A stretch of DNA of 64,000 nt from Octopus vulgaris (lineage: Eukaryota): contig OX597818.1 of the NCBI GenBank assembly GCA_951406725.2, forward strand, positions 39,680,001-39,744,000. Direction: 5' to 3'. The position numbers and the translations under genes are program-made. Within the stretch, counting starts at the first letter, position 1. Each line of letters starts with the position of its first letter. Shown one piece after another: positions 3,471-3,892 of the stretch. Below the pieces are notes generated by a model, which ran no database searches, had not been told where the DNA came from, and worked only from the letters and a program-made list of their open reading frames with translations.

Positions 3471-3892
3471 AAAATCAGCTTTGACAATAAGTCTTTCTTT
3501 GCTGCTTCCACCTCCAGAAATCATTGGATTGGGTTTGTCATCAGCATCTCCTACATCATTTGTTTTGTCATCAGCATCTCCTACATCATTTGTTTTGTCA
3601 TCATTTTTCGGTTGATCTCCTTGCATACCATCATCACCACCAACATCCTTGACTTCTGTTTTATTATCCCTTTTTTCTTCTTCAACCACATTAGTATTAC
3701 TACCATTATTTTTACCGTCATCAACACTGCTATCATCCTTACTGTCACTTTTAGTATCATTTTTACTATCATCGCCACTACCATCATCCTTATTGTCAGT
3801 TGTATCCTTGCTATCATCAGTGTCTCCCACATTTTTATCATCATCGCCACTACCACCATCCTGCTTATCTTCTATGTCAGGTTTATCTCTTC
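3471..3892 (-). CDS. Asp/Gly/Lys-rich low-complexity exon (1 to 0), 140 aa
   Basis: attttaag acceptor in phase with the previous exon; gtaagt donor after KADF (read-through stops at 3450). 38 Asp in 140 aa; ORF 3450..3830; internal 30-bp duplication ([10 protein letters not shown] x2). Confidence 0.82.

Follow-up and report, generated by a model that had tools for sequence, protein, structure and literature searches.

Exon modules of the gene

The window (the whole 64-kb stretch of Octopus vulgaris DNA analyzed here) carried on its minus strand part of a gene that was predicted from its sequence to encode an otoancorin/stereocilin/mesothelin-family protein of about 2,400 aa. A splice-site scan yielded a model of 22 exons, all of the AG..GT type and with compatible phases, which together encoded 1,042 aa without a stop (Table 1). 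In this model, E denotes the leading exons, and A, B, and C denote the exons of a repeating triplet. Four leading exons were followed by five full triplets (A, phase 0 to 2; B, phase 2 to 1; C, phase 1 to 0), by A6 and B6, and by an Asp-rich exon. Module 1 was the normal ending of the C-region in this family, and modules 2 to 6 were amplified copies. No further exon was found in positions 1 to 3470, and the next exon fell outside the window.

Table 1. Coordinates of exons and sequence features in the window
Feature	Position(s)	Strand	Remarks
E1, E2	63786-63693, 58437-58272	minus	end of cassette-1 N-region; E2 ends in furin-type RIKR
E3, E4	55470-55277, 54819-54664	minus	first repeats of post-furin cassette-1 C-region
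Module 1	A1 43675-43530, B1 42217-42075, C1 40229-40138	minus	ancestral end of the family's C-region
Module 2	A2 38086-37965, B2 36263-36118, C2 35374-35283	minus	
Module 3	A3 33408-33260, B3 28899-28757, C3 26589-26504	minus	
Module 4	A4 23390-23245, B4 20814-20678, C4 19192-19122	minus	
Module 5	A5 15576-15458, B5 12836-12691, C5 11834-11761	minus	
A6	8510-8353	minus	phase 0 to 2
B6	4752-4613	minus	phase 2 to 1; spliced to the Asp-rich exon over a 720-nt intron
Asp-rich exon	3892-3471	minus	422 nt, phase 1 to 0, 140 aa
DGGSGDDD	3860-3837	minus	candidate glycosaminoglycan site 1, Ser 14 of the Asp-rich exon
DDGSGDDS	3788-3765	minus	candidate site 2, Ser 38; second copy of a 72-nt duplication
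Perfect 30-nt tandem repeat	3534-3603	minus	2.3 copies at 100%; encodes a 10-residue peptide
Shorter exon form	3679-3471	minus	CAI9722730.1; purine-rich internal acceptor; omits both GSGDD motifs

The original prediction placed the Asp-rich exon in the C slot of the last module. Its position after B6 and its phase, which was that of a C exon, agreed with this placement, but its length, hydrophobicity, and sequence did not. The exon encoded 140 residues compared to 23 to 30 for the C exons, and its hydrophobic content was 11% compared to 30 to 42%. In addition, none of six comparisons revealed significant similarity between the Asp-rich exon and C-type segments, although this test was weak because 3 of the 15 pairs of C segments significantly resembled each other, and the exon may still descend from a C exon.

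Several other repeats were noted in the window, about 47% of which was self-repetitive. A 54-nt tandem array (23397-23646, minus strand; 4.6 copies at 94%) repeated the acceptor region of exon A4, and across the array the frame remained open over about 80 codons ahead of that exon. A degenerate second copy of the acceptor and initial codons of B6 was located at about 4850-4905 (minus strand), roughly 120 nt upstream of the genuine acceptor; none of 1,000 shuffles scored as high, and the frame of this copy shut after about 19 codons. The introns also contained a mobile-element remnant (16273-16965, plus strand), with a reverse transcriptase match at an E value of 1e-5 and a PHD-like match, and a DDE transposase fragment (30991-31590, plus strand; E value, 7e-4).

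Sequence features of the Asp-rich exon

The Asp-rich exon was flanked by an acceptor AG ahead of 3892 and a donor GTAAGT past 3471. Its 140 codons included 38 D (27%), 18 K, 17 G, 12 S, and 12 N. The 44 D/E residues were opposed by 21 K/R residues (15% Lys/Arg), which gave a net charge of -23 and a pI of 4.07, and the longest acidic run was 3. The segment is a polyampholyte. None of 5,000 base shuffles of the exon was open in any of the three frames; together with the presence of the same exon in the O. sinensis and O. bimaculoides models, this result indicated that the frame did not arise by chance.

Charge-hydropathy analysis placed the segment far on the disordered side and its flanks on the ordered side, and a single-sequence structure model, which is weak when taken alone, contained no secondary structure (pTM 0.12). 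These findings agreed with the disordered acidic segment proposed in the original prediction, whose account of the coordinates, phase, length, Asp count, GSGDD motifs, and perfect repeat was also accurate.

The two GSGDD motifs were spaced 72 nt apart, and 35 of 45 nt were identical. This indicated that they were one motif duplicated in one event, and the idea of two independent motifs was rejected. Enrichment of Ser-Gly dipeptides was also rejected, since the exon contained 3 of them when 1.45 were expected from composition (P = 0.16). When shuffling was applied to one GSGDD-type motif, the P value was 0.005, for a pattern picked post hoc, after the sequence had been seen. The perfect 30-nt repeat was one residue shorter in O. 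sinensis and present as a single copy in O. bimaculoides. In the case of the Asp codons, the GAT:GAC ratio was 30:8, and an origin of the exon from a GAT microsatellite was unproven because the other exons of the gene were biased alike. GAT-rich simple repeats were common in the introns of the gene.

Orthologues and gene models

A profile search with E3 and E4 identified 65 proteins at E values up to 0.001, and the best match (1e-58) was a 2,400-aa protein, O. bimaculoides LOC106874393 (XP_014777598.1). No decapod orthologue was present among the named matches of this profile, and a squid or cuttlefish relative may be among the 44 of the 65 matches that were left unnamed. An insect allergen-repeat protein among the matches was dropped as false. 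A whole-length search, in which 4 of 7,997 candidates were scored, added O. sinensis LOC115212334 (XP_029637058.1), O. vulgaris CAI9722730.1, and one weak fish match to the O. bimaculoides protein. A word-index search with exon E3 among proteins of 113 to 2,000 aa gave no match; the true protein was longer. The window exons were identical to the O. bimaculoides, O. sinensis, and O. vulgaris (CAI9722730.1) proteins at 728 of 898, 1,027 of 1,046, and 856 of 856 aligned residues, respectively. The family itself is not new, and databases already list the gene under the label "uncharacterized"; the names of the three Octopus orthologues were "uncharacterized" or "hypothetical." All three held the acidic exon in whole or in part, and in the O. 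sinensis protein it corresponded to residues about 1433 to 1573 of 2406.

Nine database models of the gene (seven from O. bimaculoides, one from O. sinensis, and one from O. vulgaris) were available from about four annotation sources. The junction between 4613 and 3892 was used in eight of the nine models and in three of the sources, which supported the assumption in the original prediction that the Asp-rich exon was spliced to the gene. All nine models ran on past 3471 into the same next residues and continued for 817 to 834 more; downstream of the exon were 833 residues that included a second furin-type site and a GPI-type signal. These results indicated that the exon encoded neither a tail nor a membrane stalk, the two roles that had been proposed for it. 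The C-terminal tail was rejected because 833 residues come after the exon, and the membrane stalk was rejected because the same 833 residues separate the exon from the end of the protein.

The models differed in their modules. CAI9722730.1 was without module 2, without the first 70 residues of the Asp-rich exon, and without the hydrophobic C-terminus, and module 2 (A2-B2-C2) was present in the O. sinensis and O. bimaculoides models. The internal acceptor at 3679 scored -2.1 compared to 0.7 to 12.3 for the 22 modeled acceptors, and the entry of CAI9722730.1 at this position was likely to be a prediction error, although it counts against the junction between 4613 and 3892; if real, this form would do away with the two GSGDD motifs. 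C4-A5-B5 (15458-19192 and 12691-12836) was absent from all seven O. bimaculoides models. The C4-A5-B5 and A2-B2-C2 gaps consisted of whole in-frame modules, a pattern that suggests module-level skipping or lineage-specific gain or loss.

Residues 216 to 412 of the O. bimaculoides protein, which lay beyond the window, formed a second low-complexity linker. This linker was basic (49 K/R and 7 D/E in 197 residues), opposite in charge to the acidic exon, and contained 13- and 19-residue repeats that differed among O. bimaculoides isoforms. In O. sinensis and O. vulgaris, it was just about 45 to 65 residues long.

Family membership and two-cassette architecture

The original prediction assigned the gene to an inner-ear-type anchoring family, and the Pfam, HMM, Atlas, and mesothelin profile results were in agreement with this assignment. 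The Pfam Stereocilin family (PF21058) matched O. bimaculoides residues 866 to 1026 with 54.7 bits compared to a cutoff of 26.6. The O. sinensis and O. vulgaris proteins matched no family in the local Pfam scan, although precomputed annotation lists PF21058 for both; none of 18 single exons scored above the cutoff in a Pfam scan. When the PDB was searched with a family profile, solved mesothelin chains were matched at an E value of 5e-5, and PDB searches with single octopus sequences yielded no meaningful match. The Atlas neighbors of the gene also belonged to the otoancorin/stereocilin/mesothelin family. For the 328 residues after the Asp-rich exon, mesothelin/otoancorin clusters were found at 0.82 to 0.87, which we regarded as a lead only.

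The protein was laid out as two tandem cassettes, each with an N-region, a furin-type site, and a mesothelin-like C-region of about 290 aa. Cassette 1 was lengthened by five extra A/B/C exon modules, and the Asp-rich exon followed the last B exon and led into cassette 2. The two N-regions aligned with an hhalign probability of 97.7 (28% over 287 columns), and the two C-regions aligned with a probability of 93.8 (21% over 214 columns). An HMM of the C-region was built from 13 named non-octopus relatives, with Polypterus and Atractosteus kept out of the HMM and the tree. This HMM matched each octopus protein twice, directly after each basic site, at 160 to 217 bits, and no second match in the non-octopus proteins was above 74 bits. 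The C-region tree neither supported nor rejected sister cassettes (p-AU 0.20) and had very long branches. The first 115 residues after the Asp-rich exon aligned with the N-terminal domain at a probability of just 1.3 when taken alone, so the fusion point could not be placed exactly.

Both ends of the protein lay outside the window, and the signal peptide, GPI addition, and furin cleavage are predictions based on sequence motifs. In O. sinensis, the furin-type sites were RIKR at 610 and RRKR at 2088. Visual inspection of the O. sinensis and O. bimaculoides sequences suggested a hydrophobic N-terminus, and a small-residue site with a hydrophobic C-terminal tail. An R-x-R/K-R site was located 289 to 342 residues from the end in 13 of 15 non-octopus relatives and 315 to 317 residues from the end in octopus.

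The octopus protein shared the C-region, the basic site about 320 residues from the end, and, in the O. sinensis and O. bimaculoides models, the putative hydrophobic C-terminal signal with otoancorin (OTOA) and invertebrate otoancorin-like proteins. In contrast, 15 otoancorin-like relatives had one full C-region each, and the octopus protein, with two C-regions and extra A/B/C modules, departed from the single-cassette architecture of a strict otoancorin. Mesothelin/megakaryocyte potentiating factor resembled the octopus protein in its furin-type site and family profile match, but mesothelin is about one quarter as long, has one cassette, and was not matched directly by the octopus sequence alone. 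In the case of stereocilin (STRC), PF21058 was above the cutoff in O. bimaculoides, and the named vertebrate matches that we compared were otoancorins. The doubled architecture appears to be undescribed, as no description of it, of the module expansion, or of the acidic joint was found in the open-access literature. Taken by itself, the acidic exon is an unremarkable linker of low complexity.

The two arms of the protein are likely to differ sharply in N-glycosylation, judging from their sequons. The cassette-1 C-region and modules (window 40138-58437 and modules) contained 30 N-x-S/T sequons in 819 residues, compared to 1 in the N- and C-regions of cassette 2, which together span about 620 residues (O. 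sinensis numbering).

The junction evidence came from gene models throughout, and we considered whether the Asp-rich exon or the fusion was an annotation artifact in which neighboring paralogous genes had been joined through a repeat-like open frame. The frequent GAT-rich repeats in introns and the differences between CAI9722730.1 and the other models would fit such an artifact. So would the outcome of our protein search, which returned no shorter proteins covering the A6-B6-linker-downstream stretch, including the B6-linker junction, and no other cephalopod among its results. However, the indels found across three species are in frame and leave the reading frame open, and the junction downstream of the exon is common to all nine models. 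Moreover, cassette 1 had no stop or anchor signal and cassette 2 had no signal peptide. An artifact of this type seemed very improbable.

A probable disordered acidic linker between the cassettes

The reading that we favor, with a probability of roughly 0.6, is that the Asp-rich exon encodes a disordered acidic linker joining the cassettes of an otoancorin-family protein that carries an internal duplication and has so far been found in Octopus alone. The simplest role for this linker, and probably the correct one, is that of a charged flexible spacer.

The acidic exon of O. sinensis was identical to that of the window at 139 of 139 aligned residues. The O. bimaculoides exon encoded 108 residues, of which 24% were Asp, and its identity (77 of 106 residues) was at the low end of the 54 to 100% range observed for 18 other shared exons. 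It was 32 residues shorter, yet its charge per residue was kept: D+E made up 31% of the exon, and the net charge per residue was about -0.165, in all three Octopus species. This retention of composition at 73% identity may be plain inheritance rather than selection. The richest 60-residue window contained 22 Asp in O. sinensis and 17 in O. bimaculoides, compared to 6 to 11 in 15 named relatives that ranged from cnidarian to bird and included some partial models. These counts indicated that the acidic tract was Octopus specific in this sample. Three named vertebrate otoancorins and an otoancorin-like shark protein contained 6 or 7 Asp per 60 aa, as expected from the original claim that vertebrate otoancorin has no such tract.

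Furin cleavage of the mesothelin precursor yields a soluble N-piece and a C-piece with a GPI anchor, and the mesothelin, otoancorin, and stereocilin family has been proposed to consist of superhelical lectins that tie cells to glycoprotein matrix (PMC2628672). By analogy with these three proteins, the octopus protein would be secreted, GPI anchored, and helical-repeat in fold, and it would tie a cell surface to a glycoprotein gel. Cuts at both basic sites would leave the linker within a middle piece of about 1,480 residues, which might be shed or held non-covalently. The linker may act as a hydrated, extended hinge that allows two rigid arms to reach and orient independently, in which case its length and charge would matter more than its sequence. 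When the two copies fused, the linker presumably replaced the final C exon (C6), along with the copy-1 membrane anchor and the copy-2 signal peptide.

Possible sites of action

One proposal for where the protein acts, also part of the original prediction, places it in the statocyst as an anchor. By binding calcium or aragonite, its Asp-rich segment would connect the macula to the statolith; alternatively, the segment would reside in the cupula. In vertebrates, otoancorin and stereocilin fasten the gels of the inner ear to epithelia (PMC2628672, PMC12399869), and the proteomes of two coral skeletons, which consist of aragonite, include an otoancorin-annotated protein (PMC9532382). The statoliths of cephalopods are made of aragonite, and their protein matrix is poorly characterized (PMC6597576); the review PMC10658180, in the sections that we consulted, contained no statolith proteome. 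The Asp content (27%) and pI (4.07) of the segment are also near those of an abundant limpet shell protein, Lotgi1|233420 (31% D, 10% E, pI 3.6; PMC3374290). The Asp-rich exon resembled acidic molluscan shell proteins (aspein, asprich, MSP-1, and Lotgi1|233420) in its Asp content, low complexity, and low pI. It differed from them in that no homology was shown, 15% of its residues were Lys/Arg, and it formed 6% of a protein that is predicted to be membrane anchored.

Several observations argued against the statocyst proposal. The 21 K/R residues that accompany 44 D/E residues, and acidic runs of no more than 3, are unlike the long Asp runs in Lotgi1|233420 peptides, and the segment is internal to the protein. 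The limpet homologue Lotgi1|229110 was present in 0 of 12 shell-proteome files (shell, not statolith), compared to 12 of 12 for a control protein. Statoliths or statoconia are also formed by squid, cuttlefish, snails, and clams, yet the acidic tract was lacking in the five gastropod and bivalve lineages that we examined, and, as noted above, the named matches included no decapod orthologue. The main text of a cuttlefish endolymph paper (PMC6597576) names neither protein. We consider a statocyst anchor unlikely.

A more elaborate version of this proposal is a two-headed otoancorin. Double furin cleavage would free the middle piece, whose two helical arms would bind gel glycans and whose acidic, glycosaminoglycan-bearing hinge would bind calcium or aragonite. 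The statolith or cupula matrix would thereby be cross-linked to a GPI-anchored stub on the sensory epithelium, and reach and charge would be tuned by alternative splicing, both of whole modules and of the half of the exon that carries the GSGDD motifs. We rate this scheme as slightly less probable still; if it is true, octopuses would have arrived along a separate path, but with the same ancient family as starting material, at a molecular counterpart of the vertebrate otolithic anchor.

Alternatively, the protein might act in the male reproductive tract or on gametes (i.e., on the sperm surface, in spermatophore layers, or in egg-coat binding), with the linker among several low-complexity inserts that change fast. 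The testes of Botryllus express an otoancorin homologue (PMC4523013), and one is upregulated in the testes of the crown-of-thorns starfish (PMC9759900). The octopus protein sits on very long branches (2.4 to 2.5 changes per site), identity between two Octopus species is 81%, and both the module number and the second, basic repeat linker vary. Such fast turnover is typical of reproductive proteins. We view a reproductive role as tentative, but as a better candidate than the statocyst anchor.

The octopus gene had no match in the supplements of PMC9712504, which describe material from which statocysts had been removed; this search, made without a control term, was uninformative about the tissue. 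As a candidate with a name, the gene can be assigned to a tissue with data that already exist, among them an O. bimaculoides RNA-seq data set (SRP278619) in which statocyst is represented (PMC9258296). If expression is statocyst specific, the gene would bear on whether cephalopod and vertebrate balance organs share an anchoring family, and it would be a first statolith-matrix candidate. If expression is testis specific, it would add to scattered signs of an older reproductive role for the family.

Candidate glycosaminoglycan attachment sites

The linker might also be a glycosaminoglycan attachment region, in which a xylosyltransferase acts on Ser 14 and/or Ser 38 to give a chondroitin/heparan sulfate proteoglycan. 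Both candidate sites are G-S-G sequences with four acidic residues within positions -4 to +5, and both lie in a disordered segment of a predicted secreted protein. The original prediction relied on Ser-Gly in an acidic context as the xylosylation consensus, and the two O. vulgaris motifs fit the site features described in PMC10424144 and PMC10570366. Acidic residues after SG favor heparan sulfate initiation. Both sites were identical in O. sinensis, and the composition-based P value of one motif (post hoc, as noted above) also favored attachment. Published glycosaminoglycan sites and flexible spacers both lie in unstructured regions (PMC10570366). If the internal acceptor at 3679 were used, it would switch the chains off. 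Glycosaminoglycan attachment is compatible with a spacer role.

In O. bimaculoides, the acidity of the exon was kept, but neither GSGDD motif was, so the conservation envisaged in the original prediction held in part. Site 1 reads DSSGNGK, with two acidic neighbors, and site 2 falls in a 24-residue gap; none of the three SG dipeptides in the O. bimaculoides exon had three or more acidic neighbors. The derivation of the two motifs from one duplication also weakened the case for attachment, as did the low score of the acceptor at 3679, the worst of all, and the origin of the consensus, which derives from human enzymes. A loosely acidic SG was found elsewhere in 5 of 15 non-octopus relatives, which indicated that the motif alone is common. 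The attachment regions of chondroitin/heparan sulfate proteoglycans (bikunin, decorin, betaglycan, and syndecan types) have the same G-S-G, acidic flanks, and disorder. The octopus candidate sites, which are known from sequence alone, differ in that they are far from the membrane and are not conserved in O. bimaculoides. We regard glycosaminoglycan attachment in O. vulgaris and O. sinensis as plausible, though less likely than not; on the charged spacer reading, it would be an optional, lineage-variable addition to the linker serines.

An otoancorin-like model from the hemichordate Glandiceps talaboti contained a Link domain (PF00193, 80 bits) at residues 4 to 93. This domain is possibly another tie between the family and glycosaminoglycan matrix, or the model may be a fused one.
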